Of a DNA stretch of 64,000 nt, positions 1,696 to 63,068 are shown one piece after another. The stretch comes from Vulcanimicrobiota bacterium (GTDB taxonomy: Bacteria > Vulcanimicrobiota > JAJTBE01): assembly GCA_021107945.1 (NCBI GenBank), contig JAIORV010000068.1, forward strand, positions 1,222 to 65,221, read 5' to 3'. Made by a program: the position numbers and the translations under genes. Position 1 is the first letter of the stretch; the number at the start of each line of letters is the position of its first letter. The notes below the pieces were generated by a model. It was given only the letters and a program-made list of their open reading frames with translations, was not told where the DNA came from and made no database searches.

Positions 1696-2321
1696 GGCAT
1701 CTTCCTTGTTTGTTAAATGATTGGACAAAGTTATGAATTAGATGAAATGAAGAATTCAGGAATAATGGAATATGCAGTTTAAAGTTTTATGAAGATGAGG
1801 TCTGGGGAATAATTCTCGCCATGCCCGTCCGAATAATAATCAACGGTTATTTTCGAGTTCTCCCCTGTCTTTACCGTATCATTCTCTCTCAATTCCATCA
1901 TCAATCCCACCTTTACGGGTTTTGTGGGGTTGGATGAGGGGAAAGGGGAAAGGGGAGGTGGGAAACGAGATCTATTATCCGTCATCCATTATCCGAATCC
2001 CTCTGTGGTCTTTGTGGTGAAAAATATACGTACATTATGCACCATTCGTTTATCGGGACGAGGACGTCCCTCCTACAGTTATGAACTCTGCTATCCGAGC
2101 TTTATTGGCTGTTACAGACCATATTCCAACAAATTCATAAATACCCTCCAGGCTTATTCTTGCCCTTGTTTTTTTTATAATCCTACCCTCCAACAGAACG
2201 GGAATAAAAAAATAGGAAGATAGAGTTTTAAAGGATATCGATAGTAAATATAAAATAAACGAGGCCAGTGTAAAAAAAATATATCCCCTTTGAGAACTTT
2301 AATGGGTAAAAGTATATTTGC

Positions 2322-5300
2322 ATGAATAGACATTATTTATTGGAGAGTATGATGTTAAGTAAAGAGATGGTATCAAGCAAAGAGAATTCCACTAATCATA
2401 GTGAACTGGAGCATATCCCCAAAATTCTACATGTCGATGATGATCTAGGCTTTCTGAAGTTATTTTCAAGCATGTTCGGCAAGCAATTTAATATCTCATC
2501 GGTTGCGTCCGGGACTGAAGCTCTTGACATATTAAAAATAGAAGAATTTGACGCTGTTTTAACCGATTATGAGATGCCGGGCATGAACGGATTGGAACTT
2601 TTAAAAGGGATAAAAAAAGAATACTCTGATCTTCCTGTCATTTTTTATACCGGCCAGGGTAATGAAGATGTAGCAAGGGAAGCTTTTGTGAACGGCGTGA
2701 CCGATTATTTCACAAAATACAGCTATTCTCTTGTCCATAATGAGAAACTCAGGAATTCTATTAAAAATGCAATTGAAAAGAAAAAAGTTGGAGATGCCCT
2801 TGCCAGGAGTCAGGAAACGCTGAGGGAAATGTTCGAAAACATGAGCAGTGCCGTGGCAATATATGAAGCCGTTGATGACTGTAACGATTTTATATTTGTT
2901 AATTTCAACAGGACAGGAGAAAAGATAGAAAATGTCCGAAGAGAGGATTTGATCGGGAAAAGACTCAAGGATGTTTTTCCTGCCGTGGAGGAATTCGGAT
3001 TGTTTCCGGTTTTAAAGAGAGTATGGGAAACAGGTGAGCCTGAAAGATTTCCACTTGCTCTATATCAGGATGAAAGGACAGAAGGATGGAGAGATAATTT
3101 CGTATTCAAGCTTTCAACGGGTGAGGTTGTAGCGATATATGATGATGTGACGGAAAAAAAGAACGCGGAGTTTCGAATTAAACATCTTAACAGGGTCTTA
3201 AAAGCAATCAGAAACGTGAACCAGTTAGTTGTAAGAGAAAAAGACAAGGAAAAACTCCTTCAGGGCGTTTGTGACAATCTTATTGAAACAATGGGTTATG
3301 TAAGTGCCTGGATAGCTATTATTGATAAAGAAGGAAGTTTCTTAACGGCAAAAGAAGCGGGAGTCGGAGAAGAATTTGCCAAGTTTTATGAGAGATTGGA
3401 GAAGAATGATTACCCTGAATGCATTAAAATTGCCTGGAGGGAGGTAGGGGTGATTTCATACACGGGGGAAGAAATATTAGATATGGATTGTCCTCTTAAA
3501 GATGTTTATATAGGAAATTCAGGAATGACAACGCGAGTTGAACACTTTGGACGAATTTTTGGATTTTTATCAATTATAGTTCCAAGAAATATCATTATTA
3601 ACGAAGAAGAAAAATCGCTGTTTTACGAAGTTGCGGGTGATATTGCATACGCCCTTGACAGTCTTGAAATTAAAGAGGAAAGGAATGGTCATTGGAAATC
3701 TCTGAAGGAAAAGTCACTACAGTTTATTGAAAGAGGAAAAGAGCTGAATTGTCTTTACAAAATATCCAGATTTATAGAAAAAAAGGATGTTTCAGGTGTT
3801 TCAGTAGATCAGATGCTTCAGGGTATTGTCGGGTTGATACCACCGGGATTTCATCACCCGGAAATCACTGTGGCGAGGTTTGTTGTTAACGGTATAGAGT
3901 TTATGACGAAAGGTTTTGTAAAAACTCCATGGTTGGTCAAATCGGATCTATTTGTCGATGGTAATATAATTGGAGCTTTGGAAGTTTATTACACAGAAAA
4001 GATTTCCGATATTTACGAAGATCCGTTTCTTCCGGAAGAAAAAATGTTAATAAATGCAATAACCGAGAGAATGGGGAGGGTTATAAAACGTAAAAGAACG
4101 GAAAAATTATTAAAGAGAGAGCATGCTGTTTTGAGCAATATCATAGAAACAAGTCCCGCCGGGGTCTCGACGGTGGATAAAGACGGCAATTTTACATTTG
4201 CAAACACAAAGGCGGAAGAAATATTAAAATTGGAGAGAGATGAAATCAACAAAAGAAAGTATAACGATCCGAAATGGCATATTACTGACTTTGAGGGGAA
4301 GTTTTTTCCGGATGTTATGCTGCCTTTCAACATTGTAAAGAGAACCCTGAAGCCTGTTTATAATGTGCACCACGCGATTGAAGCAGAGCATAGTGAAAGA
4401 GTGCTTCTGTCTATTAGCTCCTCTCCCCTTTTTGATGAAAACGGGAATTTTGACGGTATGGTATCAACGATTGAAGATATAACCCAAAAAATTAGAATGG
4501 AGAAAGAGCTATTAAACATGGAGAAGCTTGAATCGATTGGAGTTCTTGCGGGTGGAATCGCACATGATTTCAATAATGTTCTCACTTCAATAATCGGAAA
4601 TATATCACTTGCAAAAATTAACCTCGAACCTGATGAGGAAGCTTTTGAAGCATTGACGGATGCAGAAAAATCATCCGATCAGGCAAGAAAGCTTACAAAG
4701 CAAATATTGACATTCGCAAAAGGCGGAGTACCGGTTAAAAAGACTGTATTTATTGAAGATTTTATCAGGAATACAGTTCAATTCTCCATGAGAGAATCAA
4801 ATGTGGCGGTTGAATTCAACTTTGAAGATGAATTATGGACTGTTGAAATTGATGAAGATCAGATGGCAAGAGCGCTATACAATATAGTAATAAATGCACA
4901 ACAGGCCACTCCCGGCGGTGGAGTAATAAAAGTTAAAGTACAGAATGCTATTCTTAACGAAACTGAAGTCACTACTTTGAAGAAGGGGAAATATGTAAAG
5001 GTATCCGTGCTCGACCAGGGATCGGGCATTCCGGAAAAAAATATCAATAAAGTTTTCGACCCATTTTTCAGTACAAAAGAAATTGGAAGAGGAATGGGAC
5101 TTACAACGGCATACTCGATCATTAAAAAGCATGAAGGCGATATTGTAGTAGATTCAGACGGTAAATCCCGGACGGAAGTTATCTTCTATATTCCGGCATT
5201 ATTAAAGAAAGAAAAGATTAATGTACATACTATTGCTGAGCCAGTTCCCGTTAATGGGAGAATCCTTGTTGTTGATGATGAAAGAATAGTGAGAAAAGTT

Positions 5301-5642
5301 GCCACAAAAATACTTGAAAAGATTGGATACAATGCCGAATCTGCGAAAAACGCGGAGGAAGGGATTGACATGTATCTGGATGCAATGCAAGCCGGGCGAA
5401 AATTTGACATTGTTATTATGGATCTGACAATGCCCGGGGGAATGGACGGCACGGAAGCAACAGGAAAAATATTAGAGATTGATCCGTCTGCGAAAATTAT
5501 TGTCTCAAGTGGATATTCAACTGACCCCATGATGGTGGAATATGGGAATTATGGATTTTGCTCTTTCCTGACAAAACCATATTCTGTTAAAGATATAAAG
5601 GAGACTATCTCCGGAGTTCTGAAAGACGGAGCTGAATCCTGA
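2322..5642 (+). CDS. hybrid sensor histidine kinase / response regulator with PAS and GAF sensory domains (REC-PAS-GAF-PAS-HisKA-HATPase-REC)
   Basis: 1106 aa; N-terminal receiver (ILHVDDD...DAVLTDYEMPGMNG); H-box HDFNNVLTSIIG; HATPase G-boxes (DQGSGIP, GRGMGL); C-terminal receiver (ILVVDDE...DIVIMDLTMPGGMDG); candidate promoter TTGAGA-17-TATATT at ~2250-2290. Confidence 0.85.
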   Translation: MNRHYLLESMMLSKEMVSSKENSTNHSELEHIPKILHVDDDLGFLKLFSSMFGKQFNISSVASGTEALDILKIEEFDAVLTDYEMPGMNGLELLKGIKKEYSDLPVIFYTGQGNEDVAREAFVNGVTDYFTKYSYSLVHNEKLRNSIKNAIEKKKVGDALARSQETLREMFENMSSAVAIYEAVDDCNDFIFVNFNRTGEKIENVRREDLIGKRLKDVFPAVEEFGLFPVLKRVWETGEPERFPLALYQDERTEGWRDNFVFKLSTGEVVAIYDDVTEKKNAEFRIKHLNRVLKAIRNVNQLVVREKDKEKLLQGVCDNLIETMGYVSAWIAIIDKEGSFLTAKEAGVGEEFAKFYERLEKNDYPECIKIAWREVGVISYTGEEILDMDCPLKDVYIGNSGMTTRVEHFGRIFGFLSIIVPRNIIINEEEKSLFYEVAGDIAYALDSLEIKEERNGHWKSLKEKSLQFIERGKELNCLYKISRFIEKKDVSGVSVDQMLQGIVGLIPPGFHHPEITVARFVVNGIEFMTKGFVKTPWLVKSDLFVDGNIIGALEVYYTEKISDIYEDPFLPEEKMLINAITERMGRVIKRKRTEKLLKREHAVLSNIIETSPAGVSTVDKDGNFTFANTKAEEILKLERDEINKRKYNDPKWHITDFEGKFFPDVMLPFNIVKRTLKPVYNVHHAIEAEHSERVLLSISSSPLFDENGNFDGMVSTIEDITQKIRMEKELLNMEKLESIGVLAGGIAHDFNNVLTSIIGNISLAKINLEPDEEAFEALTDAEKSSDQARKLTKQILTFAKGGVPVKKTVFIEDFIRNTVQFSMRESNVAVEFNFEDELWTVEIDEDQMARALYNIVINAQQATPGGGVIKVKVQNAILNETEVTTLKKGKYVKVSVLDQGSGIPEKNINKVFDPFFSTKEIGRGMGLTTAYSIIKKHEGDIVVDSDGKSRTEVIFYIPALLKKEKINVHTIAEPVPVNGRILVVDDERIVRKVATKILEKIGYNAESAKNAEEGIDMYLDAMQAGRKFDIVIMDLTMPGGMDGTEATGKILEIDPSAKIIVSSGYSTDPMMVEYGNYGFCSFLTKPYSVKDIKETISGVLKDGAES

Positions 5643-5643
5643 T

Positions 5644-6423: not shown

Positions 6424-7001
6424 AATTATCCTCCGCATCCCTTGTTTTTCATCTGTTCAGTCAGGGTAGCCGAGGGTAGATATCCCCGGCGCAATTCTAA
6501 TCTAAAGAAATTCAAGATGTATGAATGAATACCTTTTCATAAAAAAGCTGTAATATCCGTTTATCGGGATGGGGACATCCCTCCTTTATGGGAAAGGGGA
6601 AAGGGGAGGTGGGAAAGGGGAGGTGGGAAACGAGATCCATTATCCGTCATCCATTTTCCATTATCCGTTTATCGTTATCCGTTTATCGTTATCCGTTTAT
6701 CGTTATCCGTTTATCGGGACGAGGACGTCCCTCCTACAGCTCCGCTCCCCGCTCCGCATAACCCTCTGTGATCTCTGTGTCTTCTGTGGTGAAAAAACAT
6801 ACATCCTGTAGTATCCGTTTATCGGGATGGGGACATCCCTCCTTTATGGGAAAGGGGAAAGGGGAAAGGGGAGGTGGGAAACGAGAGGCGGGAAGCGGGT
6901 CATCCGTTCTCCCCTTTGTGGTCTTTGCGGTGAAAAAAAATGTTATCAAAGATTAGGTCATGTTAGCACAATTCAACACACCACAGCAACATTACACCTA
7001 T

Positions 7002-7069: not shown

Positions 7070-8629
7070 ATGAGCAATACTCCGGAAACCCGAACCGACA
7101 CCATGAATACATGGGAACTACAACAGACCACACTGACGGGAAGCGAAATTCATCACAGGGAAGAAGCGGAGATCATCGGAATCAAAGAAGTAACCGATAT
7201 CCTGGGAATCTCACGATCTACTCTCTATCGCTGGATGAAAGACGGAAGAGTTACCGGCAAAAAACTCGGAGGTCAATGGCGATTCTACAGGGATGATGTC
7301 TATAGGCTTCTCAGCGCTCCGCACCGGGAGCAGGGCGAAATCGTGGAGAAAAGCTTTGAAAAGGCAATCGAAACATACCGACAACTATTTAAATCGATTA
7401 AAATTGATGATGAAAAAATTCTTGAATTGACTCCCGTCGCACCTGACGAAGAGGACAGAGAAGAAAGCTCCCGCAGCCCGGTCTCCGAGCTATTTGATTT
7501 GATCCTTATAAGAGCTGTCATGGAAGAGGCCTCGGACATTCATATTGATCCTTACGGGAATTCAATCCGTATCCGGCACAGGGATATGGGAACACTTTAT
7601 AATATCTGCCTCCTCCCCGAGGAGTTAAATCCTTTGCTTGCTATACATATAAAGAAAGTGGCGGGATGCGAGCATGACCTGAATCGTGTTCCCCAGAACG
7701 GCAAATTTACCCGCCGGATCGGAGAAAGGGAAGTGATCTTCCGGGCAAACTTTTTTCCATGCATTGAAGGGGAGGCAATTGAATTGAGAATATTGGATAA
7801 AAACATTGCCATACCGCCGGTGACGGAGCTGGGGTTGAATCCCGCCGATGCTGAAAAACTATCCGATGCCATTCACGCAAAATCAGGACTTATCATAGTT
7901 ACCGGACCCACCGGGAGTGGAAAGACTACGGCATTATACTCGTGTCTCCAGGAAATCAATACGGAGGGAAAAAATATTCTCACGGTGGAAGATCCCGTTG
8001 AAATATCATTCAAGGGAATAACTCAATCACAAGTGCTCCCCGACAGAGGATACACTTTTGCTAAAGCTATACGGGCAATGTTCAGGCATGATCCCGATGT
8101 CATAATGGTGGGAGAAATAAGAGATCTGGACATAATGAGATTTCTTCTACAGGCATCCATCACGGGCCATCTTGCCTTCACCGCACTGCATGCCCCGGAT
8201 ACGGTTTCGGCAATTAAGCGACTTCTGGATCTGGGCGTTGAGCCTTTTCTTGTAAATGACTCCGTTTCTCTTATTATTTCAGGTCGTATTGTCAGGAGGA
8301 TCTGCCGTCATTGCAAAGAAGAAGTTGCAGCCGACCCCGAACTTATAAAGAAGATGGCTTTCCCACTTTCATTCATCAAGAATTCCACATATCGGGGCAG
8401 GGGATGTAATTTTTGCCACGGGAAGGGCTACAAGGGAATGACTGCAATATATGAGGTGTTATCACTTACCGATGAGGTAAAACATCTCATTGACCGGAAC
8501 GCCCCCATATCTGAGATTCGAAAAGCGGCCCTTGAAGCGGGGATGAATACCATGAGAAGCGAGGCAAAAAGAAAGGTAAAGGAAGGAATCACTACACTGG
8601 AAGAGATATACAAAGTGCTTTATAACTAA
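7070..8629 (+). CDS. GspE/PilB-family type II secretion / type IV pilus ATPase with N-terminal excisionase/MerR-type HTH
   Basis: Walker A VTGPTGSGKTT; Asp box/Walker B region VGEIRD; His box; tetracysteine CRHC...CNFCHGKG; N-terminal ITDILGISRSTLYRWMKDGRVTGKKLGGQWRF is an HTH_17-like DNA-binding motif. Start moved from 7040 to 7070 because of AAGGAGGG 8 nt upstream. Confidence 0.8.
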   Translation: MSNTPETRTDTMNTWELQQTTLTGSEIHHREEAEIIGIKEVTDILGISRSTLYRWMKDGRVTGKKLGGQWRFYRDDVYRLLSAPHREQGEIVEKSFEKAIETYRQLFKSIKIDDEKILELTPVAPDEEDREESSRSPVSELFDLILIRAVMEEASDIHIDPYGNSIRIRHRDMGTLYNICLLPEELNPLLAIHIKKVAGCEHDLNRVPQNGKFTRRIGEREVIFRANFFPCIEGEAIELRILDKNIAIPPVTELGLNPADAEKLSDAIHAKSGLIIVTGPTGSGKTTALYSCLQEINTEGKNILTVEDPVEISFKGITQSQVLPDRGYTFAKAIRAMFRHDPDVIMVGEIRDLDIMRFLLQASITGHLAFTALHAPDTVSAIKRLLDLGVEPFLVNDSVSLIISGRIVRRICRHCKEEVAADPELIKKMAFPLSFIKNSTYRGRGCNFCHGKGYKGMTAIYEVLSLTDEVKHLIDRNAPISEIRKAALEAGMNTMRSEAKRKVKEGITTLEEIYKVLYN

Positions 8630-8642
8630 TAGGAGGATATAT

Positions 8643-9995
8643 ATGGAAATCAATCCTTTGCAAAGCAAAAACATCAAAATAAAAGGACGGTCAACTCCCG
8701 CAACAAGTAAACCGCCGGGTTTTGGCAGAGATTCCGTTCAGATATCAGGGAACAGGGAAATGAACCTGGTTTCAGGCGAAAAATTAAAGAAGCTTTTTGC
8801 TCCCACCCGGGCCACATGGACTCATGAATGGGACAAGAAACCACACCGCAAAAGCTTTCTCCTGTCAAAAGATGGAAATCTCTATACCGGGGATTATAAA
8901 GAGCTCTATTGCCTGGATCGGAAAACAGGTAAGGTAAAATGGAAAAAGAAATTTGAAAGGGAGCTTGATTCTTTCCCGGGTGTTGTGGGGATTGATAACA
9001 CTCTTTATGTCTGTACAACCGATTCCCATATAAGAGCTATCGATCCAAAAAACGGTAATGAGAAGTGGAGTTTTGATATGAAAGTCCGCGGAGGCACGCC
9101 TAAAATCGGCCCCGACGGAAGTCTTTATGCTCAGTATAAAGATGATCTTTGCATTCTCAAACCAAACGGCAGGAAAAAGTGGACTTACAGGATCAACGAG
9201 TACATGCAAAGAGTGGTGGAAATTGACGGTAACGGCGCATCTTACGTTGCAACCAAAGACAAAGGCGTGTTTGCTTTCTCACCGCGCGGGAAGAAGCTCT
9301 GGAATCATCCCGGAAAATCAGTTTTCACAGGGGATGACGATGTCTATGTCGCTGGGGAGAATAGCGTTTTACGGGTTGATCCCAAGACAGGCAATGAGTT
9401 GTGGGAAAAAAATGTGGGAGAGTATTGGGTTGGACGTTCGAAGTGCGGGAAGGTTGTATTACATAGATACGGAAGAATTACCTGCCTGGACAGGGATAAC
9501 GGAAACACTATCTGGAAAAATGAGACAAACGGCAGTCATTATGTAAGATATCTGAGCGATGAGGGTGTGGCCATAGTAGGATCCGACGAGGGTGAGATAT
9601 ATGCTTTGGATCCCGGGAATGGAAACAGAATATGGACCCACAAGTGCAGGGCGGAAGCGCAATATGGAAACGCCTGTTTGAGAGAAGACGGGATTTTATT
9701 TATAAGTGACAATAAAACAATATATGGTCTTGATATTAAAACGGGAAATTCAAAGTTTAGTTATTCGCCCGGCGGGGATATAGAGCAATTCGATATGGAC
9801 GAGGGGAAAGAATCCCTTATTATCGAGGAGAAAGATACATTTAATATTCAGTTGGTTGAATGCAAATCCGTCGATGAAACGGCAAGAGAGATTATGGATG
9901 ACTCCGGCAAGAGCGACGATACGGTTAAAAAGATAGATAAAGGAGAAAAGTTTGTTGACATAGGCGGTGTAAGATTGCCCATTCAGGGGACTTGA
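8643..9995 (+). CDS. PQQ-like beta-propeller repeat protein (BamB/YVTN-like), no signal peptide detected
   Basis: 450 aa; repeated motifs of the form lY..t.D..l.alD..tG...W (e.g. LYVCTTDSHIRAIDPKNGNEKW, IYALDPGNGNRIW); TAGGAGGATATATATG SD; 14-nt gap after the upstream ATPase gene. Confidence 0.7.
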   Translation: MEINPLQSKNIKIKGRSTPATSKPPGFGRDSVQISGNREMNLVSGEKLKKLFAPTRATWTHEWDKKPHRKSFLLSKDGNLYTGDYKELYCLDRKTGKVKWKKKFERELDSFPGVVGIDNTLYVCTTDSHIRAIDPKNGNEKWSFDMKVRGGTPKIGPDGSLYAQYKDDLCILKPNGRKKWTYRINEYMQRVVEIDGNGASYVATKDKGVFAFSPRGKKLWNHPGKSVFTGDDDVYVAGENSVLRVDPKTGNELWEKNVGEYWVGRSKCGKVVLHRYGRITCLDRDNGNTIWKNETNGSHYVRYLSDEGVAIVGSDEGEIYALDPGNGNRIWTHKCRAEAQYGNACLREDGILFISDNKTIYGLDIKTGNSKFSYSPGGDIEQFDMDEGKESLIIEEKDTFNIQLVECKSVDETAREIMDDSGKSDDTVKKIDKGEKFVDIGGVRLPIQGT

Positions 9996-10718
9996 GCTTG
10001 CCTGCCTGAGCAATAAACTATTCACCGCAAATGTCCCTCCTATAAATTTAGAGGCGGGAGGTGAGAGGCGGGAGGTGAGAAGCGGGGAGCGGGATCTGTT
10101 CTGCACCATCTGCCATCATTCATTTTCTTCGTATCTTCGTGATAAAAAAATCTCTGTGGTCTCTGCGATCTCTGCGGTGAAAAAATACGTACATCCTGCA
10201 CTATCCGTTTATCAGGATGGGGACATCCCTCCTGTATGGGAAAGGGGAGGTGGGAAACGAGATCCATTATCCGTCATCCATTTTCCATTATCCGTTTATC
10301 GGGACGAGGACGTCCCTCCTACAGATTCGGGCTGCATTATCCGTTTTCCGAATTCCTCTGTGGTCTTTGCGGTAAAAAACACGTTGGATGGGGACATCCC
10401 TCCTGCAAACGCGAGAAAGGCCTTCCGAAATGACATTCGCTTACGTCCCAATCATTAAATTGTGAAAAAAATCCTTTAAACGGGAAGGTATTTGTGATGT
10501 TGTAAAGAAAGAAAAAGCGATTTTAATTGCCATAATTTCCAGATGGAACCCAGGATATAAAATTCCCAGGGAAATGGCAAGCGATTTGGGGTATGTATAT
10601 TGAAGGTACGGGCTGAAAAACCATGCCGGCATTGTCGGTTCCTAAATTTTTGGATTATGAGAAGTAGCCGAATCTATATCAAGGGTCAATACCCAAAATT
10701 TCTAATAAGAACCAGGGG

Positions 10719-15763: not shown

Positions 15764-15770
15764 AAATTAA

Positions 15771-15796
15771 ACGCGGAGGACGCAGAGGACGCAGAG
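15771..15796 (+). repeat. 3-unit heptad array (CGCGGAG-GA-CGCAGAG-GA-CGCAGAG) abutting the start codon of the GxxExxY gene
   Basis: Read directly: acgcggaggacgcagaggacgcagagATG. Its inverted partner is at 16190-16226. Confidence 0.8.
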
Positions 15797-16234
15797 ATGA
15801 ATAAGGCGGAGATGATCAATAAAATAACCGGGAAAATTATCGGCGTGGCAATTGATGTTCACAGGGTGCTGGGACCCGGATTGCTGGAGTCTGCTTACGA
15901 AGCCTGTATGGTGTTCGATCTTATAGAAGCCGGTTTGAAGGTGGAACAGCAAAAACCTCTGCCGGTTATCTATAAAAATGAAAAACTTGATTGCGGATAT
16001 AGACTGGATTTACTTGTTGAAGATGAGGTGATTGTCGAAATAAAATCTGTTGAGAAAGTATTACCCATACATAAATCTCAGTTATTATCTTATTTAAGGC
16101 TTTCAGATAAAAAGGTCGGATTATTAATAAATTTCAATGTAATAATCCTTAAAGATGGAATTTCAAGGATAGTAAATAATTTTCAAGACTCTGCGGTCTC
16201 CGCGATCTCCGCGTTGAAAAAAGAAGGTGAATGA
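15797..16234 (+). CDS. GxxExxY-family protein (PD-(D/E)XK nuclease superfamily, PDDEXK_3-like)
   Basis: 145 aa; motif GVAIDVHRVLGPGLLESAYEACM contains G-x-x-E-x-x-Y; downstream D...E.K-like acidic/Lys residues (LLVEDEVIVEIKSVEK); inserted between hdrA and mvhD; its stop overlaps the mvhD ATG (ATGA). Confidence 0.8.
   Translation: MNKAEMINKITGKIIGVAIDVHRVLGPGLLESAYEACMVFDLIEAGLKVEQQKPLPVIYKNEKLDCGYRLDLLVEDEVIVEIKSVEKVLPIHKSQLLSYLRLSDKKVGLLINFNVIILKDGISRIVNNFQDSAVSAISALKKEGE
16190..16226 (+). repeat. 3-unit heptad array in inverted orientation (CTCTGCG-GT-CTCCGCG-AT-CTCCGCG-TTGAAAAAA), inside the last 12 codons of the GxxExxY gene
   Basis: Reverse complement is TTTTTTCAA-CGCGGAG-AT-CGCGGAG-AC-CGCAGAG, matching the 15771-15796 array unit for unit. 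Confidence 0.8.
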
Positions 16235-16671: not shown

Positions 16672-17069
16672 TACTGAAGGGAAGCAAGGTCAAGAGCAAA
16701 CTTACCGAGAAAGTGGAAAAAATCAGCGGGCAGAATATATTTGCCTGTTACCAGTGTGGAAAATGTTCGGCCGGATGCCCCATGATCGACTCTATGGATT
16801 ATATGCCGAATCAAGCGATGAAATTGCTGCAAATGGGAGCAGCGGAAGAGATTATCAATTCGAAAACAATGTGGATGTGCGCCTCGTGCCATACATGCTC
16901 GGTGCGATGCCCCCGCGACATCGATCTCTCCGCTGTTATGGAGGCATTAAGACTTATATATCTCAGAACAAATGTCAACAAAGTGGAGCCTTCGCAGATT
17001 CCCGAGGAAGAGTTGAAGGATCTCCCACAGATTGCACTTGTTTGCAATTTTCGGAAGATGACCAGATAA
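16662..17069 (+). CDS. hdrC: heterodisulfide reductase subunit C-like (2x[4Fe-4S])
   Basis: 135 aa; CYQCGKCSAGCP and CASCHTCSVRCP; GGAGGTG SD; 10-nt overlap with mvhD. Confidence 0.8.
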   Translation: MRIILKGSKVKSKLTEKVEKISGQNIFACYQCGKCSAGCPMIDSMDYMPNQAMKLLQMGAAEEIINSKTMWMCASCHTCSVRCPRDIDLSAVMEALRLIYLRTNVNKVEPSQIPEEELKDLPQIALVCNFRKMTR

Positions 17070-17074
17070 CGGAA

Positions 17075-17165
17075 AATGGATAATGGATAATGGAAGATGG
17101 AACTGTAGGAGGGACGTCCCCGTCCCGATGAACGGATAACGGATAACGGAGGACGGATCCAACCT
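17075..17165 (+). repeat. intercistronic composite repeat (GGATAAYGG units plus reverse-complemented GGGACG palindrome module) between hdrC and hdrB
   Basis: ggaaaatggataatggataatggaagatggaactgtaggagggacgtccccgtcccgatgaacggataacggataacggaggacgg; same family as the elements at 2047-2078, 6706-6740, 18841-18882, 37441-37492 and 62918-62975. Confidence 0.75.
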
Positions 17166-17195
17166 CCCTATTCTATATTTAGGTGGACAATTTAT

Positions 17196-18071
17196 ATGAA
17201 ATACGCATATTACCCCGGATGTACATTGAAAAGTTATGCTGACAACCTGGAGTCATCGGTATTGGCTGTGGCGGAAAAGCTGGGTATTCAAATGGAGGAG
17301 TTACCCCACTGGACATGCTGCGGCACTGTTTTCTCACAGGCTGATGACGACCTGGTTCACCAGATAGCTCCACTTCGAATTTTACTTGATGCGCAGAAAG
17401 TTGGCGCCAAAAAACTTCTGGTGGTCTGCTCCATGTGTTACAACACCCTGAAGCAGGCTTCCCTGTTGTTTGAGAAAAAGCCTGACAAACTGGAGACGCT
17501 TAACCTTTTCCTCGATGATGAGGATGACTACCTTGGTGAAGTTGAGGTTGTTCATTTTCTACAAGTTTTGAGGGATGAGGTCGGGATTGAAGAAATTGCA
17601 AAACAGGTGGTAAGGCCATTGACAGGGCTCAATGTCGCCCCTTACTACGGATGTCTTCTTCTCAGACCCCAGGAGGTTGCGTTTGATGAGCCGGAGCGTC
17701 CCACGGTAATTGAGGAGATCCTTGTCGCACTGGGAGCGGAAGCGATAATGGATCCTCTGAAAGTGGAGTGCTGTGGTTCATACCAGACGGTTAACAACAA
17801 GGAAATAATAGCGGACCGTACACGCACCATAATCAACTCCGCACGGTCCAGGGGAGCAGAGATGATAGCCCTTGACTGTCCCCTGTGTGACTTCAACCTT
17901 GATTTCCGACAAAAGGAATCGGAGAAGAAATACACGGATTTCTTTACCATGCCCATCCTGTATTACACGCAGTTGATGGCGCTGGCAATGGGAATTAATG
18001 GGGATATTTATGGGTTTGATAAGCATTATGTTGATCCAAGACCACTTCTCAAGGAGTATGAATTGATATGA
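17196..18071 (+). CDS. hdrB: heterodisulfide reductase subunit B-like (two CCG domains)
   Basis: 291 aa; N-terminal YYPGCTL...WTCCG; second domain YYGCLL...ECCGS; AGGTGG SD; its stop overlaps the next ATG (ATGA). Confidence 0.85.
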   Translation: MKYAYYPGCTLKSYADNLESSVLAVAEKLGIQMEELPHWTCCGTVFSQADDDLVHQIAPLRILLDAQKVGAKKLLVVCSMCYNTLKQASLLFEKKPDKLETLNLFLDDEDDYLGEVEVVHFLQVLRDEVGIEEIAKQVVRPLTGLNVAPYYGCLLLRPQEVAFDEPERPTVIEEILVALGAEAIMDPLKVECCGSYQTVNNKEIIADRTRTIINSARSRGAEMIALDCPLCDFNLDFRQKESEKKYTDFFTMPILYYTQLMALAMGINGDIYGFDKHYVDPRPLLKEYELI

Positions 18072-18814
18072 AAATAATGGAAAAGAATTCGTCAGCAACG
18101 GAAAAAGAAATGAAGGAGAAAAAACCGGCGGAGGTTGAGCAGGCTTTCATAAGTGTTTATATCATGGGGAAAGAACACAGGGTCCCCTTTGGGTTGACAA
18201 TAATGAAAGCGATGGAATATGCCGGTTATCGTTTTGTACGTGGAGCCGGTTGCAGAGCGGGCTTTTGCGGAGCGTGTGCTACTATTTACAGGATGAAGGG
18301 CGATTACAAGCTCGAGACCGCCCTTGCCTGTCAAACCACTGCACTGGACGGGATGTATCTCACCCAGATACCTTTCATGCCTGCAAACAAGTCTGTTTAT
18401 GACATTGAAAAGCTCAATCCGGACATTAACTCGATTCTTCATCTTTATCCCGAAATAGCGCGTTGCGTGAGCTGTAATATGTGCACGCGCTCCTGCCCTC
18501 AGGATCTTGAGGTTATGGATTACATTCAGGCCGCTCTGCGGGGCGACACAGAAGAAGCCGCCAGGCTTTCATTCGACTGCATACAATGCGGACTTTGCAC
18601 TGTGCGCTGTATGGCTGAAATTTCTCATTACCACGTGGGGCAGCTCGCTCGCAGATTGTATGGCAAATATTATTCCCCCACTCCCCGGCATCTTACAGAA
18701 AGGCTCGAGGAGATGGATGAGGGAAAATATGATGAGGCAATGGACGAGCTTGTTGTTATGGATAAGGAAAACTTGAAGAAAAAATACTGGAAACGTGATA
18801 TGGAAGTTAAATAA
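18068..18814 (+). CDS. succinate dehydrogenase/fumarate reductase iron-sulfur subunit-like protein ([2Fe-2S] plus 2x[4Fe-4S] motifs)
   Basis: 248 aa; CRAGFCGAC (plant-type 2Fe-2S), CVSCNMCTRSCP, CIQCGLCTVRC; AAGGAGTATGA SD. Confidence 0.8.
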   Translation: MKIMEKNSSATEKEMKEKKPAEVEQAFISVYIMGKEHRVPFGLTIMKAMEYAGYRFVRGAGCRAGFCGACATIYRMKGDYKLETALACQTTALDGMYLTQIPFMPANKSVYDIEKLNPDINSILHLYPEIARCVSCNMCTRSCPQDLEVMDYIQAALRGDTEEAARLSFDCIQCGLCTVRCMAEISHYHVGQLARRLYGKYYSPTPRHLTERLEEMDEGKYDEAMDELVVMDKENLKKKYWKRDMEVK

Positions 18815-18819
18815 CGGAC

Positions 18820-18950
18820 AACGGAAGCCAGAGGCCGGATCTGTAGGAGGGACGTCCCCGTCCCGATAATCGGTTATCGGAAATTGCAGCTCAAACCTTT
18901 AGGTTTGCCGCTTCTGCTCTGCGGACTCTGCGTTAAATAAAAAAATCGAA
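18820..18950 (+). repeat. intercistronic composite repeat (palindrome module plus heptads CTCTGCG-GA-CTCTGCG-TTAAATAAAAAAA) between the sdhB-like and sdhA-like genes
   Basis: ctgtaggagggacgtccccgtcccgataatcggttatcgg ... cttctgctctgcggactctgcgttaaataaaaaaa. Confidence 0.75.
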
Positions 18951-18978
18951 TCCTTATGAATATGAAGAGGAGAACAAT

Positions 18979-20625
18979 ATGGAAATCATCGACGGTTACC
19001 CCGACTTTATGATGGAATCAATTAAGAAGGTTGAAAGAACCCGTAAATCCCGCATCGGCAGAAACCTTCCCAGGATGTCTTCAGATCAGCGAGAAGTCAT
19101 ATTAAGTAAATTTCATCCCGATTATAAGGAGCATGAAAAGAAGAAGCTTCAAATCGGTCCCAACAAGGGATATCGCATGCCCCTCGAAATGATATCACTC
19201 CTGGAAGCGGAGCCTTTCCTTGATACGAGCAAGGTTGATTTATCCCGCGTGGATTATGATGTTGATGTCCTGATTATTGGGGGCGGAGGGGGAGGAACTG
19301 TCGCATCCATATGGGCGAATATGTCCGGTGTACCCGCCGACAGGATCCTCATCAGCACAAAGCTTCGCCACGGCGACAGCAACTCCATGATGGCACAGGG
19401 CGGAATCCAGGCGGCGGATGGCCCCATTGACAACCCGCCGATTCATTACCTGGATATTATCGGCGGAGGCCATTTCGCCAATAAGCCCAAACTCGCAAGA
19501 ATTCTTGCCATGCAGGCGCCAAAGATTATCAAATGGCACGAGTCCCTGGGCGTGATGTACGACAAGGATAAAGAAGGTAACTTCGTCGAGAGACCGGGAG
19601 GCGGAACTTCTCGCAAGAGAATGCACTCATCCAAGGATTATACAGGAATGGAGATCCTCCGGGTCGTCCGTGATGAGTCCATAAACAGGAAGATTCCCGT
19701 GCTTGAATTTTCACCCGCAATCGAGCTTTTAAAGGACGATATGGGACAGGTAGCCGGCGCAATACTGATGAACCTTGAGACGAACCAGTACTATATTGTG
19801 AAAGCCAAGGTGGTCATAATGGCCACAGGCGGATGGGGAAGATTACATATACAGAATTTCGCCACGACAAATCATTACGGAGCAACGGCGGACGGACTGG
19901 TAATGGCATACCATGTCGGCGCCAAACTCAGAGACCTCGATTCCGTCCAGTATCATCCCACAGGAGCAGCGTACCCGGAGCAGATAGTGGGACTCCTGAT
20001 CACCGAGAAAGTCAGAACGATGGGCGCGCAACCGGTGAATATGAATGGCGAGCTTTTCGTAAATCCACTGGAGCCAAGGGATGTGGAGGCGTCAGCGTTC
20101 ATCAGGGAGTGTTACGAGAGGGAAATGGGAATCACCACACCCACAGGCATGACCGGAGTATGGCTTGACTCGCCAATGATCGATATTGTCCAGGGTGAAG
20201 GCACGATCCATGCCAACCTGGATGCCATGTACAGGATGTTCCAGCGATTCGGGATAGATATGACAAAGCATCCCATGCTGGTTTTCCCGACGCTTCATTA
20301 CCAAAACGGCGGAGTAGAGATAAATGAGCATTGCCAGACATCTGTGAAAGGCCTTTTCGCCGCTGGAGAAGTTACCGGAGGAGTCCACGGCAAAAACAGG
20401 CTTATGGGAAATTCCCTCCTGGATTACAATGTATTCGGTAAGATTGCGGGAATAAATGTGGCAGAGTATATCAAGAATGTGAAGATCGGCAAGCTTACCC
20501 TCGATCATGTAGATAAATACAGAAATATCCTGAGGGATGCCAATATTAAATCAAAAGTCAAAGCCCCCATGATCCTGCCGGAATATCGCGAAGAGAACCT
20601 CATGAAAAGAACGATAAAGGTATAG
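18979..20625 (+). CDS. FAD-binding succinate dehydrogenase/fumarate reductase flavoprotein-like subunit with ~95-aa N-terminal extension
   Basis: 548 aa; dinucleotide motif VLIIGGGGGGTVAS at residue ~97; MAQGGIQAA (FAD-binding_2 signature); active-site-region HY..ATADG / QYHPTGAAY; GAAGAGGAGAACAATATG SD. Confidence 0.8.
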   Translation: MEIIDGYPDFMMESIKKVERTRKSRIGRNLPRMSSDQREVILSKFHPDYKEHEKKKLQIGPNKGYRMPLEMISLLEAEPFLDTSKVDLSRVDYDVDVLIIGGGGGGTVASIWANMSGVPADRILISTKLRHGDSNSMMAQGGIQAADGPIDNPPIHYLDIIGGGHFANKPKLARILAMQAPKIIKWHESLGVMYDKDKEGNFVERPGGGTSRKRMHSSKDYTGMEILRVVRDESINRKIPVLEFSPAIELLKDDMGQVAGAILMNLETNQYYIVKAKVVIMATGGWGRLHIQNFATTNHYGATADGLVMAYHVGAKLRDLDSVQYHPTGAAYPEQIVGLLITEKVRTMGAQPVNMNGELFVNPLEPRDVEASAFIRECYEREMGITTPTGMTGVWLDSPMIDIVQGEGTIHANLDAMYRMFQRFGIDMTKHPMLVFPTLHYQNGGVEINEHCQTSVKGLFAAGEVTGGVHGKNRLMGNSLLDYNVFGKIAGINVAEYIKNVKIGKLTLDHVDKYRNILRDANIKSKVKAPMILPEYREENLMKRTIKV

Positions 20626-20687
20626 TAAACCGCCTCTTGGGCTGTTTTATAAATATTAACCCGGATAAAACTTTTGAATTAACCACA

Positions 20688-20720: not shown

Positions 20721-20743
20721 AGATTTTATTACATTCAACGTAG

Positions 20744-20770
20744 CGCGGGTCTTTAGACCCGCCTTTTTTT
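20744..20770 (+). terminator. rho-independent terminator GCGGGTC-TTTA-GACCCGC-TTTTTTTT
   Basis: Perfect 7-bp GC stem, 4-nt loop, T8 run; lies in the convergent gap between the sdhA-like gene (+) and glyQS (-). Confidence 0.7.
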
Positions 20771-37357: not shown

Positions 37358-37492
37358 ATCACAGAGGACACAGAGGACACAGAGATATTAATATTTCCCC
37401 CCCGATTATCTTCCGCGAACTCTGCGTTAAAAAAACACTTCCGCCTTCCGTCACCATTATCGGGACGGGGACGTCCCTCCTACAGTTCTGAC
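37358..37492 (+). repeat. composite repeat: heptads (CACAGAG-GA)x3, CTCTGCGTTAAAAAAA, palindrome module ATTATCGGGACGGGGACGTCCCTCCTACAG
   Basis: Read directly. Confidence 0.8.
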
Positions 37493-38276: not shown

Positions 38277-38333
38277 CTGTAGGAGAGGCTTCCAGCCTCG
38301 ATTTTCGTGGCAAGATGCCACTCCTACAACTGA
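38277..38333. ncRNA. ~57-nt structured element (outer stem TGTAGGAG/CTCCTACA enclosing hairpins GAGGCT-TCC-AGCCTC and GTGGCA-AGA-TGCCAC), copy 1
   Basis: A second copy at 57283-57337 carries compensatory substitutions in two stems; a degenerate third copy lies at ~43100-43133. Confidence 0.45.
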
Positions 38334-42937: not shown

Positions 42938-43423
42938 GTGAATCCCTTTTAATAAATTTAACTATTCACCAAAGATGACCTGGGGAGCACATAGCTTTAA
43001 ATAAGCTTAATGCGTCAGAATCCTGACCATGATAAATCAATATAGAGCCTTAAGATAGCCGCCCTCCCGACCAACCTGAAGCGGTGTAAAATCGAGAGTC
43101 ACGAACATCGAGGCTGTCAGCTTCTCCTACAAATAGTTCTTTGAATAGTTCTTTATTTAATAATATAATTTTAAGAGGTATAAATCAATTGTCCTTTGGA
43201 CTTATAAAAAACATTATTACGGTATTTTGACCTACGCCTTGGCGTTACCCGCCTATATTTAATTTGACACCACTGGTATTTACAAACCTGTCGCCATATG
43301 TGATCTTCAACAAAAACGCCAATGTTTTCTAAACAAGATAAAACTCCGCCTAATGCGGAAAATGAATTGGGTGCACATGTTTCCTGTCAAAAATATTTAT
43401 TACTATTCGGATCCCACCATCAT

Positions 43424-46149: not shown

Positions 46150-46225
46150 CAGACTATAAAAACCCGCGCCACGTGATGTAGATATAATTATTTTGCGGGT
46201 TTGAAAACCCGCGCTACGTGGTGGG
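46150..46225. promoter_or_regulatory. direct repeat of GAAAACCCGCGCYACGTGRTG (two copies, each containing the CACGTG palindrome) plus a GCGGGTTT-GAAA-ACCCGC hairpin
   Basis: tataaaaacccgcgccacgtgatg ... ttttgcgggtttgaaaacccgcgctacgtggtg; lies between oadB (stop 46247) and the amidohydrolase start (45794). Confidence 0.35.
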
Positions 46226-50134: not shown

Positions 50135-50290
50135 AATCACGGAGGCCGCGGAGGATAACCGGAGGAAAAATATTGATATCTCTGAGGTAGATGGAAGTGG
50201 GAAATGGGAAGTGGGAAATAACTGGGATTTTAAGCTTTTTCGACACCCTCACATCCCGTCTCCCGCCTCTCGCCTCCCGTTTCCCGCTTC
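50135..50290. repeat. composite repeat: heptads ATCACGGAG-GC-CGCGGAG-GATAACCGGAGG and a C-rich complement of the G-tract module
   Basis: gatggaagtgggaaatgggaagtgggaaataactggg ... cccgtctcccgcctctcgcctcccgtttcccgcttctcgtc. Confidence 0.75.
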
Positions 50291-50297
50291 TCGTCTA

Positions 50298-53332: not shown

Positions 53333-53426
53333 GAGAGATAACGACTTTTTTTTTACCACGAAGTCACGAAGGACACGTAAAGAAAAAAGAGAGAAGAAAT
53401 TGGAAGATGGAAATCCGTCACTCGTC

Positions 53427-53545
53427 CCGGGAAGACGCTGAAACGCCTGAAGCAGTGGGGGTTGTGTGCATTCTCTTCTTCCCCGGATAAATCCGGGGGT
53501 TAATCTCATGGGAGGTTTAAAAACCTCCGCTACCCGACCTCCAGC
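53427..53545 (+). repeat. three-hairpin element, copy 2
   Basis: cccgggaagacgctgaaacgcctgaagc ... ccccggataaatccgggggttaatctcatgggaggtttaaaaacctccgctacccgacctcc; matches 37172-37300. Confidence 0.75.
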
Positions 53546-53625
53546 ATCCGTCCTCCATTACCCTCTGTGCCTGCGCTGAACTTGTTTCAGTGTCCTCTGT
53601 GGTAAAAATTTTAACGGTGAAAAAG

Positions 53626-56794: not shown

Positions 56795-57282
56795 TTATAA
56801 ATACAAACTTAAAATTCAACATGGGTAGTATTTAATGAAACCTGGAATCAATCCTTCAAAAGCCCAGGTCAGTAGTGTCCTTTGTCCAATCTTTCCGCAA
56901 ACAAAAAGGATACCTTATTTTATCAAGGTCAGCAAACCCAAAACCACTCTTTTACTTGGACAACATTGACTTTTTCTATTTACTTTTCAGATTTAACGCC
57001 CGTATCCTTATGTGTCTTTAATATATTTTTTTTCCTGGGGCTTATCAAAGACGTCTTTCCCAGTTCAGGCCTTTTTTCGTTTACGGCAACATCTTTCTCC
57101 AGATCCGATTTTTCAAAAAATAAATAGAAAAATACAAGGAGACCAAATAGAAAGAGCATGCTAATTAAGAAGAAAAACATTATCACTTTCACCATTTCAC
57201 CCTTCTATTTCTTTTTATACCCATTGTCAGAGGAAATAACCATTTCATGAAAAATTTATTTATATCTATTCAGACCTCCCAC

Positions 57283-57337
57283 AGCAGGAGAGCCTTCCAG
57301 GCTCGATTTTCGTGGCAGGATGCCACTCCTGCAAACA
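57283..57337. ncRNA. structured element, copy 2 (outer stem GCAGGAG/CTCCTGC; hairpins GAGCCT-TCC-AGGCTC and GTGGCA-GGA-TGCCAC)
   Basis: Compensatory changes relative to the copy at 38277-38333 preserve both helices. Confidence 0.45.
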
Positions 57338-57520
57338 ATACCACTAAATTAAGGCAGGAGTGACGCATCTTTAAAGCGGAATGGCATGAGAACATCGATA
57401 AAACCCATAGGGCATCTCACATTGTTATTATAATCCAGCGCCAAAACCCACATCACCCATGTGTTGACTCACTAATTCATGGGCATTGCCTATGGGAGGG
57501 ATTTCCCAACCCCGATAAAT

Positions 57521-57947
57521 TAGTGTCTGTCCCTAATTAACAAAATGGCGTCTGTCCCTGTCCCTATTAGTGAATTAATTAGGGACAGACACCAATTATT
57601 TTCCCCTCCGGATATGCCCACAGGTTTTGGGTAATATGATGTATAATGGGAAAAACCTATCGTTGCAATCCTTGTAATTCTTGTTAATAAAAATAGTGTC
57701 TGTCCCTAATTAACAAAATGGCGTCTGTCCCTGTCCCTATTAGTGAATTAATTAGGGACAGACACCAATTATTTTCCCCTCCGGATATGCCCACAGGTTT
57801 TGGGTAATATGATGTATAATGGGAAAAACCTATCGTCGCAATCCCTGCAATTCTTGTTAACAAAAATAGTGTCTGTCCCTAATTAACAAAATGGTGTCTG
57901 TCCCTGTCCCTGTCCCTGTTAATGAATTTATTAGGGACAGACACCAA
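57521..57947 (+). repeat. 173-bp tandem array, 2.5 units. Each unit has a perfect 18-bp inverted repeat GTGTCTGTCCCTAATTAA ... TTAATTAGGGACAGACAC (34-nt spacer carrying a third half-site) followed by an extended -10 element TGTATAAT
   Basis: Units start at 57521, 57694 and 57867; inter-unit segments ~97% identical; TGnTATAAT at 57640-57647 and 57813-57820. Confidence 0.85.
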
Positions 57948-58133
57948 TAGGGGGAACTGAACATTTACCTTCGAATTGGGTGTAAGATAAATATATGAAA
58001 ATACTTTTTGCAAGGAAGGATAAACGCGTACCTCTTAAAGAATAAAACTGCCTGTTGATTCTGTAAAACATATAATTCTATAATTCGGAAGTATTTAATA
58101 ACACTTTTAAAACCGCACCTGGAGAAAAATGTA

Positions 58134-61431: not shown

Positions 61432-61538
61432 TTTTCGAGTTGATAAATAAAACGTAACTATTGGACATCTTTGTTTTTCAAAGTAAAGCAAGCTGTTTCC
61501 AATAAGTAATGTCGTTTTTATTGGAATATTAATAAAAC

Positions 61539-61612
61539 CGCAAAGAAGCAAAGAACACAAAGAAAATTATTTTTAAACCTTTGTGGTCTTTGCGGTCTTT
61601 GCGGTAAAAAAA
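61539..61612. repeat. inverted heptad arrays forming a long hairpin (CCGCAAAG-AAGCAAAG-AACACAAAG / 16-nt loop / CTTTGTG-GTCTTTGCG-GTCTTTGCGG-TAAAAAAA)
   Basis: Read directly between gap and pgk. Confidence 0.75.
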
Positions 61613-62864: not shown

Positions 62865-62871
62865 GAGACTT

Positions 62872-63068
62872 CTTTTCACCACAGAGGCCGCAGAGGTATT
62901 CGGGGAATGGAACCCTGATCTGTAGGAGGGACGTCCTCGTCCCGATAAACGGATACGCAGGACGGATGTTTTATTTCACCGCAGAGATCACTGAAATAAA
63001 TTCAGGGCAGGCTCAGAGCACGGAGTTTTTTGATTTAAATTCTTCGTGTCCTTCTCGTCTTCGTGGTT
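62872..63068. repeat. composite repeat cluster (heptads TTTTCACC-ACAGAGG-CCGCAGAGG; reverse-complemented palindrome module; TTTCACCGCAGAGATCAC; TTCTTCGTG-TCCTTCTCG-TCTTCGTGG)
   Basis: Read directly, in the convergent gap after pgk. Confidence 0.75.

Follow-up and report, generated by a model that had tools for sequence, protein, structure and literature searches.

Judging from its sequence anatomy, the palindrome that recurs through the 64-kb stretch of DNA analysed here (the window) is a new family of the GTAG-tagged super-family of repetitive extragenic palindromes (REPs), with the GTAG-1 (Pseudomonas-type) layout, a kind of element that is already known. It is the unpaired CTGTAG tag on the complementary strand that places the unit among GTAG-tagged REP elements. 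Taken whole, the best explanation, in which a GTAG-1 REP is spread by a REP-associated tyrosine transposase (RAYT), grows into arrays and has a role in RNA, is considered probable (roughly 0.8).

Eleven matches to the core GGGAYGRGGAYRTCCC with at most one mismatch were found in the window, compared with 0.06 +/- 0.24 expected from shuffles, which bears out the original prediction that the palindrome recurs; ATCCGTTTATCG likewise gave 11 matches with at most one mismatch, where 0.52 were expected. Copies lie on both strands, and all 11 are intergenic, at seven loci, in a window of which intergenic DNA makes up 15.7% (Table 1). Their coordinates had been listed correctly to within a few bases, except that the copy described as partial lies at 10385-10408 and not at 10392-10410. 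Seven copies are arranged head-to-tail inside mosaic arrays, while the four single copies stand in sense orientation 26-128 nt downstream of a gene or ORF, a placement matching that reported for 'uni-REPs' and 'conv-REPs'. As predicted, two copies are located between cistrons of the kor-hdrA-mvhD-hdrCB operon, one between hdrC and hdrB and the other between the 248-aa FeS gene and the 548-aa flavoprotein gene.

Table 1. Coordinates of palindrome copies, arrays and other GTAG-tagged hairpins in the window
Feature	Position	Strand	Remarks
REP copy, subtype A (CTGTAGGAGGGACGTCCTCGTCCCGATAA on - strand)	2050..2078	-	last module of composite 1924-2078
REP copy, subtype B (ATAAAGGAGGGATGTCCCCATCCCGATAA)	6561..6589	-	compensated stem, degenerate GTAG tag; head fused to G-tract heptads
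Tandem array, 4 x 14-mer TTATCCGTTTATCG	6661..6716	+	abuts tail of next REP
REP copy, subtype A	6711..6739	-	
REP copy, subtype B	6819..6847	-	22 nt past GGTGAAAAAA end of nonamer block
REP copy, subtype B	10209..10237	-	first stem pair broken, tag ATACAG
REP copy, subtype A	10296..10324	-	
REP copy, subtype B	10385..10408	-	truncated tail (no GATAA), tag TTGCAG
REP singleton, subtype A, sense	17103..17131	+	hdrC stop +33 nt; hdrB start 64 nt further on
REP singleton, subtype A, sense	18841..18869	+	26 nt past 248-aa FeS gene stop
REP singleton, subtype A	37457..37485	-	sense to minus-strand genes; 128 nt past ORF 37614-38240 stop
REP singleton, subtype A, sense	62920..62948	+	55 nt past pgk stop, convergent genes; nonamer block on each side (two)
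Mosaic (BIME-like) array	6555..6945	+	
Second mosaic array	10050..10408	+	collinear with 6555-6847
GGGAYGRGGAYRTCCC core matches	2055, 6566, 6716, 6824, 10214, 10301, 10385, 37462	+	
GGGAYGRGGAYRTCCC core matches	17111, 18849, 62928	-	
Copies 22-26 nt from GGTGAAAAAA nonamer block	2055, 6824, 10214, 37462, 62928		
F2 GTAG-tagged hairpin family, GTAGC-GCGGGT-YTTYAR-ACCCGC	20740..20762	+	
F2 further unit	46195..46217	-	
F2 unit with different stem	53511..53533	-	
F3, separate GTAG-tagged family	38277..38329	.	two inverted hairpins, TGTAGGAG tags outermost
F3 third unit	43109..43131	-	

Besides the 11 copies of the 64 kb, contig L010 has one copy and the relative L014 has two. When 14 copies were aligned, conservation was confined to ~29 nt, with a sharp drop outside; these consistent boundaries mark a discrete repeated element and not simple-sequence noise. 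The conserved stretch, TTATC-GGGAYG-RGGA-YRTCCC-TCCTACAG, runs from (T)TATC to CTACAG. On the complementary strand it reads CTGTAG-GA-GGGAYG-TCCY-CRTCCC-GAT(AA). Here an unpaired GTAG tag is followed first by the dinucleotide GA, then by a 6-bp stem closed by a 4-nt loop, and finally by a GAT tail, which 90% or more of the 14 copies keep. The CTGTAG tag, a key feature absent from the original prediction, occurs in all seven A-type copies of the window and in those of L010, L011 and L014 (9816). A degenerate tag is found in the four B-type window copies and in L014 14336; the B-type tags read ATAAAG, ATACAG and TTGCAG, so that GTAG is lost. Published GTAG families also include degenerate tags (PMC3733652).

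The 6-bp stem and 4-nt loop, together with the variant GGGATG-GGGA-CATCCC, are as originally described. Stem pair 5 covaries (C-G in eight copies, T-A in five and an intermediate C·A in one), 96% of cells are paired versus 37-64% in slid controls, and the stem is preserved through compensatory change; complementary stem changes are known from GTAG REP sub-families (Di Nocera et al. 2013, PMC3733652). Isolated 29-mers fold as a hairpin at -5.5 to -7.0 kcal/mol (z ~ -2.6). With ~29 nt, 6 bp and 4 nt, the unit has the dimensions of a REP (a unit of 20-40 bp, a stem of 6-13 bp and a short loop), and four further GTAG-1 characters were found, namely the GTAG tag, the dinucleotide with a 3-bp motif, the extragenic site and the complementary stem changes. 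In published GTAG-1 and GTAG-2 REPs, the unpaired dinucleotide lies between tag and stem and the conserved 3-bp motif on the other side (PMC3733652). The 6-bp stem stands at the short end of the REP range; GTAG REP stems are mostly 6-9 bp, and 6-13 bp across families (PMC3733652).

The compensated stem also speaks for a cis-regulatory site of the host with no history of mobility, either a protein-binding palindrome (the core has GACGTC within GGACGTCC) or an RNA regulatory or processing hairpin, as does the position of four sense copies shortly past stop codons, two of them within one operon. Such a site is nevertheless highly improbable, because the adjoining genes are functionally unrelated (histidine kinase, T2SS ATPase, kor/hdr, DUF4127 and pgk), copies point either way and also form tandem clusters, and the whole window gave no Rfam match at gathering score. 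In addition, the orthologous hdrC-hdrB spacer varies, being 29 nt long and repeat-free in L012, containing heptads and no palindrome within the 131 nt of L015 (a fragment of a close relative), and holding CTGTAGGAGGGATGTCCTCATCCCGATAA, with a compensated stem, in L014. No target-site duplication emerged when the window's filled site was compared with the L015 fragment, which is an unclean empty site since the surrounding heptads differ too. The REP explanation does allow for a regulatory role gained once a copy had inserted.

That the hairpins are intrinsic transcription terminators is scarcely credible: they are G+C-rich and come after ORFs, but no T-run follows the hairpin in either orientation, a conserved operon has two copies between its cistrons, and a scan of 16900-21000 skips the palindromes yet calls F2 at 20745-20762, where a T-run is present. 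CRISPR and integron attC readings were dropped on anatomy together with the terminator reading, there being no spacers, no R'/R'' cores and no T-run.

The modules flanking the palindrome (GGGAAAG, ATCCRTT, CTCCGCT, TTCTATC and others) are short tandem heptamer arrays found only in intergenic DNA. Array 6555-6945 runs in the order REP-B, G-tract heptads, ATCC heptads, REP-A, CTCCGCT heptads, nonamer block, REP-B, G-tract and nonamer block. It is collinear over 6555-6847 with 10200-10408, and both share the order B palindrome, G-tract heptads, ATCC heptads, A palindrome, spacer, nonamer block and B palindrome; 10237-10301 equals 6610-6674, 65 nt at 100% identity. Within each of the two clusters (6561/6711/6819 and 10209/10296/10385) the copies all point the same way, with subtypes alternating B-A-B. 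The predicted tandem array is real, with 4.0 copies at 100% matches, although its unit is a 14-mer made of two heptads and not the 15-mer of the earlier title. Chaining to a repeat block through a spacer was seen in part, as five of the 11 copies lie 22-26 nt from the 'GGTGAAAAAA' nonamer block and the remainder do not; for copy 10385 the gap to the nonamer block is just 5 nt. The proposed link to a G-tract applies to the GGGATG subtype only (6566, 6824 and 10214). The four B-type copies, which have lost the GTAG tag, always accompany the G-tract and may spread only through array duplication.

Composites of fixed module order and collinear arrays thus exist as the original prediction held, but what is conserved is a unit of only ~29 nt and not the 150-400 bp composite. 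If the mobile unit were nonetheless the whole composite, a MITE-like non-autonomous transposon with the palindrome as one module, the collinear arrays with their identical 65 nt would be accounted for, as would the third composite (1924-2078), which keeps the order G-tract, ATCC heptads, nonamer block and palindrome, and the same relative orientation of the five palindromes lying 22-26 nt past the GGTGAAAAAA nonamer end. We regard this as quite unlikely, given that conservation across all copies is limited to ~29 nt, that flanks are unrelated in four window copies and in the L010 copy, that copies 17103, 18841 and L010 lack the other modules or show a different arrangement, and that module copy numbers vary freely. 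Target-site duplications, which the original prediction proposed to look for at copy ends, are not visible, and no terminal inverted repeats, target-site duplications or shared outer boundaries such as would define a MITE were found around the unit or the composites. A distant-mode search of a plasmid collection with the composite 6540-6945 gave no match.

The nonamer blocks raise a further alternative, in which a GxxExxY (PD-(D/E)XK) nonamer-block mobile system either left the palindromes and heptads behind as footprints or uses them as accessory sites, and they are not RAYT-dependent REPs. In the window, as in three other lineages, the GxxExxY gene lies between nonamer blocks that form inverted repeats, and five to seven of the 11 palindromes are near a nonamer block. 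Even so, this is very unlikely, as no such palindrome lies beside the cassette ends in the window or in the Brocadia, Aminicenantes-labelled and Deltaproteobacteria-labelled contigs, the palindrome bears the complete GTAG-1 REP signature, and GTAG-1 REPs occur in cassette-free genomes.

The palindrome coexists with other GTAG-tagged hairpin families, both in this genome and in relatives. All 10 TGTAGGAG octamers of the window directly precede a hairpin, and these hairpins have three unrelated stem sequences. At 38277-38329, F3 forms a head-head dimer resembling a REPIN, with a DNA fold of -16.9 kcal/mol (z -5.7), and additional GTAG-headed hairpin families were found in the relatives L012 and L014. 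With the copies of the palindrome removed, GTAG occurs upstream of any 6-bp hairpin in 6 of 179 cases versus ~3.5 expected; because this general excess is small, the tag argument rests on the longer TGTAGGAG head. The F2 copy at 20740..20762, with a T-run after it, looks like the operon terminator.

Beyond the window, an identical 27-mer is present at another locus, on the unrelated contig L010, and near-identical GTAGGAGGGACRTCCYCGTCCC units occur in Poribacteria-labelled and Cytophagia-labelled contigs. A scan of genome contigs with GGGAYGRGGAYRTCCCTCCT gave at least seven loci, and among the matches listed the GTAG tag was seen in L001 and L006 only. Five of these loci look like chance matches (unrelated genomes, no GT before AGGAGG). 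The scan of metagenome contigs yielded two loci and that of viral contigs no match. For ORF 63074-63916, no encoding contig is on record, and its start codon is probably wrong.

As for mechanism, a RAYT (HUH/Y1) encoded elsewhere in the genome would spread or maintain the copies in the form of single-stranded DNA hairpins. Since no RAYT/Y1 transposase was found by Pfam among the 44 window ORFs or in the Pfam lists of ~100 kb of related loci, we infer mobilisation and do not observe it; published surveys indicate that REPtrons may be missing from some REP-bearing strains. Clusters may then grow via local duplication, gene conversion and slippage, giving B-A-B head-to-tail arrays with variable heptad counts. 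The sense single copies just past ORFs, including the two in the hdr operon, are probably transcribed; as small RNA hairpins they could, for instance, block 3'-exonucleases or mark processing sites and thereby adjust relative cistron expression. We infer this RNA role from position only; in the full intercistronic RNA, the hdr copies form no significantly stable larger fold (z 0.2 and -0.1 versus shuffles).

The palindrome finding is real but reveals no new kind of system. With it, the range of Pseudomonas-type (GTAG-1) REPs reaches an uncultured lineage that carries the label Candidatus Eremiobacteraeota, and the REP family accounts for a large part of the unusually repeat-rich intergenic DNA of this genome. 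Units and surrounding arrays break metagenome assemblies and seed spurious ORFs, and knowing their structure aids annotation; the two hdr-operon copies may serve to tune subunit stoichiometry after transcription. A by-product of the analysis, the GxxExxY cassettes with nonamer inverted repeats at their ends, may hold more novelty than the palindrome. Palindromes, heptad arrays and nonamer blocks could be parts of one intergenic system, a repeat grammar in which the GxxExxY PD-(D/E)XK cassette, with inverted nonamer arrays at its ends, could insert between operon cistrons, and a shared mechanism could set GTAG hairpins at a fixed distance outside the cassette termini. Both this reading, which ties the grammar to a cross-phylum GxxExxY cassette, and its alternative, that the GTAGGAGGGACRTCCYCGTCCC units mark a single REP/RAYT pair spread horizontally across phyla, are unlikely.

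Among known systems, the cyanobacterial STRR heptanucleotide repeats, reportedly described by Mazel et al. in 1990, resemble the flanking modules, which are likewise short tandem heptamer arrays in intergenic DNA; however, the likeness concerns the flanks and not the palindrome, the host is not a cyanobacterium, and the resemblance drawn here is one of form. REPINs, said to have been described by Bertels and Rainey in 2011, are matched by F3 at 38277-38329, an inverted REP doublet folding into a long hairpin, whereas the palindrome itself was never seen as an inverted doublet in the window. As in the bacterial interspersed mosaic elements (BIMEs) of E. coli and in Neisseria mosaic intergenic regions, two REP subtypes alternate (B-A-B), with recurrent linkers and arrays at several loci; successive BIME REPs alternate in orientation, however, while those found here are all direct, and the linkers here are tandem heptad and nonamer arrays. 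From the Pseudomonas GTAG-1 REPs, the palindrome differs in stem sequence, in its loop (4 nt versus 2-3 nt), in its host, an uncultured MAG and not a proteobacterium, in that no cognate RAYT is seen, and in that its clusters consist of head-to-tail copies throughout, with heptad and nonamer tandem repeats between them; head-to-tail clustering is reported to be rare for GTAG REPs (PMC3733652). Both are extragenic, have complementary stem sub-families, occur with several REP families per genome and form tandemly reiterated clusters. Position for position, the palindrome matches the layout of TGTAGGAGCGGATTCATCCGCGAT of P. entomophila and GTGGGAGGGGGCTTGCCCCCGAT of P. fluorescens SBW25 (Nunvar et al. 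2010, PMC2817692), with TGTAG, an unpaired GA, a G+C-rich stem of 6 bp, a short loop and GAT.

The palindrome family F1 (match pattern CTGTAGGAGGGAYGTCCYCRTCCCGAT) is a real, well-bounded family of GTAG-tagged repetitive extragenic palindromes (REPs) with a Pseudomonas-type layout, found in a new host lineage and lying within mosaic arrays. With at most one mismatch allowed, the core GGGAYGRGGAYRTCCC was matched 11 times in the window compared to 0.06 expected from shuffles, and the flanking ATCCGTTTATCG was also matched 11 times (0.52 expected). Re-inspection of these matches showed that the copy coordinates in the original prediction were all right to within a few bases; the tandem array it had described as 15-mers is also real, with 4.0 perfect copies at 6661-6716, but its unit is a 14-mer. 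Once oriented, the copies fall into two subtypes (see table), and no match to the family was found in Rfam. In an alignment of 14 copies (11 from the window, two from the related contig L014 and one from contig L010), conservation was limited to approximately 29 nt: identity was 90% or higher between ATC and CTACAG, and the flanks failed to align. On the complementary strand, CTGTAG-GA-GGGAYG-TCCY-CRTCCC-GAT(AA), a GTAG tag that stays unpaired is followed by the dinucleotide GA, then by a 6-bp stem closing a 4-nt loop, and finally by a GAT tail. Ninety-six percent of stem cells pair, compared to 37-64% when the partner is slid as a control, and folding of the 29-mers gives the predicted hairpin at -5.5 to -7.0 kcal/mol (z about -2.6). 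The fifth stem pair is C-G in eight copies, T-A in five and C·A in one, the last being an apparent intermediate between the other two.

Features of the window and of the contigs compared
Feature	Location	Content
F1 subtype A	window	TTATCGGGACGRGGACGTCCCTCCTACAG; 7 copies
F1 subtype B	window	TTATC(G/A)GGATGGGGACATCCCTCCTKTAT fused to GGGAAAG heptad tract; 3 copies plus truncated copy at 10385
F2 hairpin family	20740, 46195; also 53511	GTAGC-GCGGGT-loop-ACCCGC; another stem at 53511
F3 hairpin family	38277-38329; 43109-43131	Inverted doublet; one further unit
hdrA-mvhD site, window	15764-16233	GxxExxY cassette
hdrA-mvhD site, L012	9070-9135	Nothing (66 nt)
hdrA-mvhD site, L013	7218-8957	IS4-type DDE transposase
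hdrA-mvhD site, L014	8600-8823	Inverted nonamer pair (8600-8810) without ORF
GxxExxY cassette, L021	1470-1925	
GxxExxY cassette, L025	970-1425	
GxxExxY cassette, L026	975-1420	
'Empty' nonamer pairs, window	61530-61612, 26310-26390, 53349-53612	10-20 nt or other repeats between
hdrC-hdrB spacer, L012		29 nt, no repeat; HdrB 77% identical
hdrC-hdrB spacer, L013		Heptads and another TGTAGGAG element
hdrC-hdrB spacer, L014 (about 83% identical)		CTGTAGGAGGGATGTCCTCATCCCGATAA, T-A compensated stem, beside F2 unit
hdrC-hdrB spacer, L015		Heptads, no palindrome within 131 nt covered; fragment ends inside spacer; coding DNA 89% identical
Heptamer/octamer arrays, window	35431-35528, 26252-26294, 37525-37591, 50193-50293, 27983-28014	Among many intergenic arrays; e.g. 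(TTCTATC) x12
173-bp tandem repeat, window	57517-57948	2.5 copies, 94% matches
33/66-nt tandem repeat, window	30003-30278	8.5 copies

Both the ENA assembly ERZ26872897 and Logan runs contain contigs identical to the window, and NCBI labels protein records of this MAG 'Candidatus Eremiobacteraeota bacterium'. The gene content consists of ordinary housekeeping and energy genes, including the operon korDABG-hdrA-mvhD-hdrC-hdrB-FeS-flavoprotein. All 11 F1 copies, at seven loci, are intergenic, while intergenic DNA makes up 15.7% of the window. Four are solitary, each in sense orientation downstream of an ORF at a distance of 26, 33, 55 or 128 nt (two within the hdr operon and one after pgk); uni- and conv-REPs have been described in this position. 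No copy has a T-run after its hairpin, and a terminator scan of 16900-21000 called no F1 site. The remaining seven copies are distributed over three mosaic arrays, in which they always run head-to-tail. Two of these arrays, 6555-6847 and 10200-10408, are collinear, with the module order B, G-tract, ATCC heptads, A, spacer, nonamer block, B, and have 65 identical nucleotides in common; therefore, the composite elements of 150-400 bp originally proposed are real higher-order repeats, although conservation of F1 itself stops at about 29 nt. The composites resemble BIMEs, yet their REPs are in direct orientation. In five copies the distance past the GGTGAAAAAA end of a nonamer block is 22-26 nt; in copy 10385 it is 5 nt.

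The nonamer block motif was matched 21 times in the window (0.8 expected), and GxxExxY (PF13366 / TIGR04256) gene cassettes have these blocks, which stand beside many F1 copies, as their inverted terminal arrays. One such gene (PDDEXK_3; 15797-16234) lies between hdrA and mvhD, inside the hdr operon, with AACGCGGAGGACGCAGAGGACGCAGAG at one boundary and CTCTGCGGTCTCCGCGATCTCCGCGTTGAAAAAA at the other; in its cassette (15771-16221) the nonamer GCAGAGNNC forms inverted arrays that end on the outside in TTCACC and GGTGAA. Homologues 70-78% identical occur on contigs labelled Brocadia, Jettenia, Aminicenantes, Deltaproteobacteria and Thermodesulfobacteriota. At three of three sampled homologue loci (labelled Brocadia, Aminicenantes and Deltaproteobacteria), the gene is bounded by the same inverted nonamer arrays, and each cassette sits as an insertion between two neighbouring genes, in the same direction as they run. 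No literature on nonamer-bounded GxxExxY cassettes was found; gene and arrays together look like a small mobile cassette not described before. The 'empty' inverted nonamer pairs look like MITE-type derivatives of it. With four states in four relatives, the hdrA-mvhD spacer is an insertion hot spot within a conserved operon.

The hdrC-hdrB spacer also varies among relatives. No target-site duplication was seen at this site, which is too variable for a clean comparison; none would be expected from IS200/IS605-like single-strand transposition. A scan of metagenome contigs for the palindrome gave matches on two contigs only. No REP-associated tyrosine transposase (RAYT) was found among the window genes or the related loci examined, which leaves mobilisation of F1 copies by a RAYT as something we infer; the hairpins may have a role at the RNA level. 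Separately, an independent metagenome contig (L011, JGI Ga0255407_1333), 99.96% identical over 2.3 kb, differs in its positions 1-186 from window 37355-37661: the composite with the REP at 37457-37485 is joined, inverted, to the 3' end of ORF 37614-38240. The single junction seen has a 4-nt overlap and a weak flanking inverted repeat (74%), and the arrangement could be a true inversion or else a chimera that arose in amplification or assembly.

Other tandem repeats are also present. The intergenic heptamer and octamer arrays are similar to the STRR repeats of cyanobacteria; relatives have purine-rich heptad arrays and complementary pyrimidine-rich ones on either side of the spacer centre, which are predicted to fold into long hairpins (z -3.1 in L015). 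The 173-bp repeat falls within the largest intergenic gap (56795-58133); the difference there between the window and the ENA contig L016 amounts to about one repeat unit. The 33/66-nt repeat lies at the 3' end of a minus-strand gene (29996-31384) with a periplasmic-binding-protein domain and codes for its repetitive C-terminal tail.

GTAG-headed hairpins extend beyond F1. In the window TGTAGGAG occurs 10 times, each time directly before a hairpin, with three unrelated stems overall, and hairpins of their own are found in L012 (GTAGCGGAGACCTTTAGGTCTCC, three times) and L014 (GTAGCRCGGGTYTTYARACCCGY). Near-identical GTAG-tagged units were also observed in at least two MAGs that are unrelated: GTAGGAGGGACATCCCYGTCCC, repeated head-to-tail as a doublet adjoining an IS607-like serine recombinase gene, in L006 (3793-3860; Candidatus Poribacteria chromosome OZ251518.1), where one copy has A-T as its closing pair compared to G-C in the window, and GTAGGAGGGACGTCCTCGTCCC in L001 (2482-2504). 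These could reflect convergence or horizontal spread of a REP family. Published REPs have been sorted by tag into a GTAG and a CGTC super-family (Di Nocera et al. 2013; PMC3733652); stems are mostly 6-9 bp long, with a range of 6-13 bp over all families, and sub-families are distinguished by complementary stem changes. What sets GTAG-1 and GTAG-2 apart is that an unpaired dinucleotide separates the tag from the stem and that the opposite side carries a conserved 3-bp motif (PMC3733652). Pseudomonas REPs include TGTAGGAGCGGATTCATCCGCGAT and GTGGGAGGGGGCTTGCCCCCGAT (Nunvar et al. 2010; PMC2817692), and the window unit TGTAGGA-GGGACG-TCCC-CGTCCC-GAT agrees with them position for position, the differences being limited to stem sequence and loop length.
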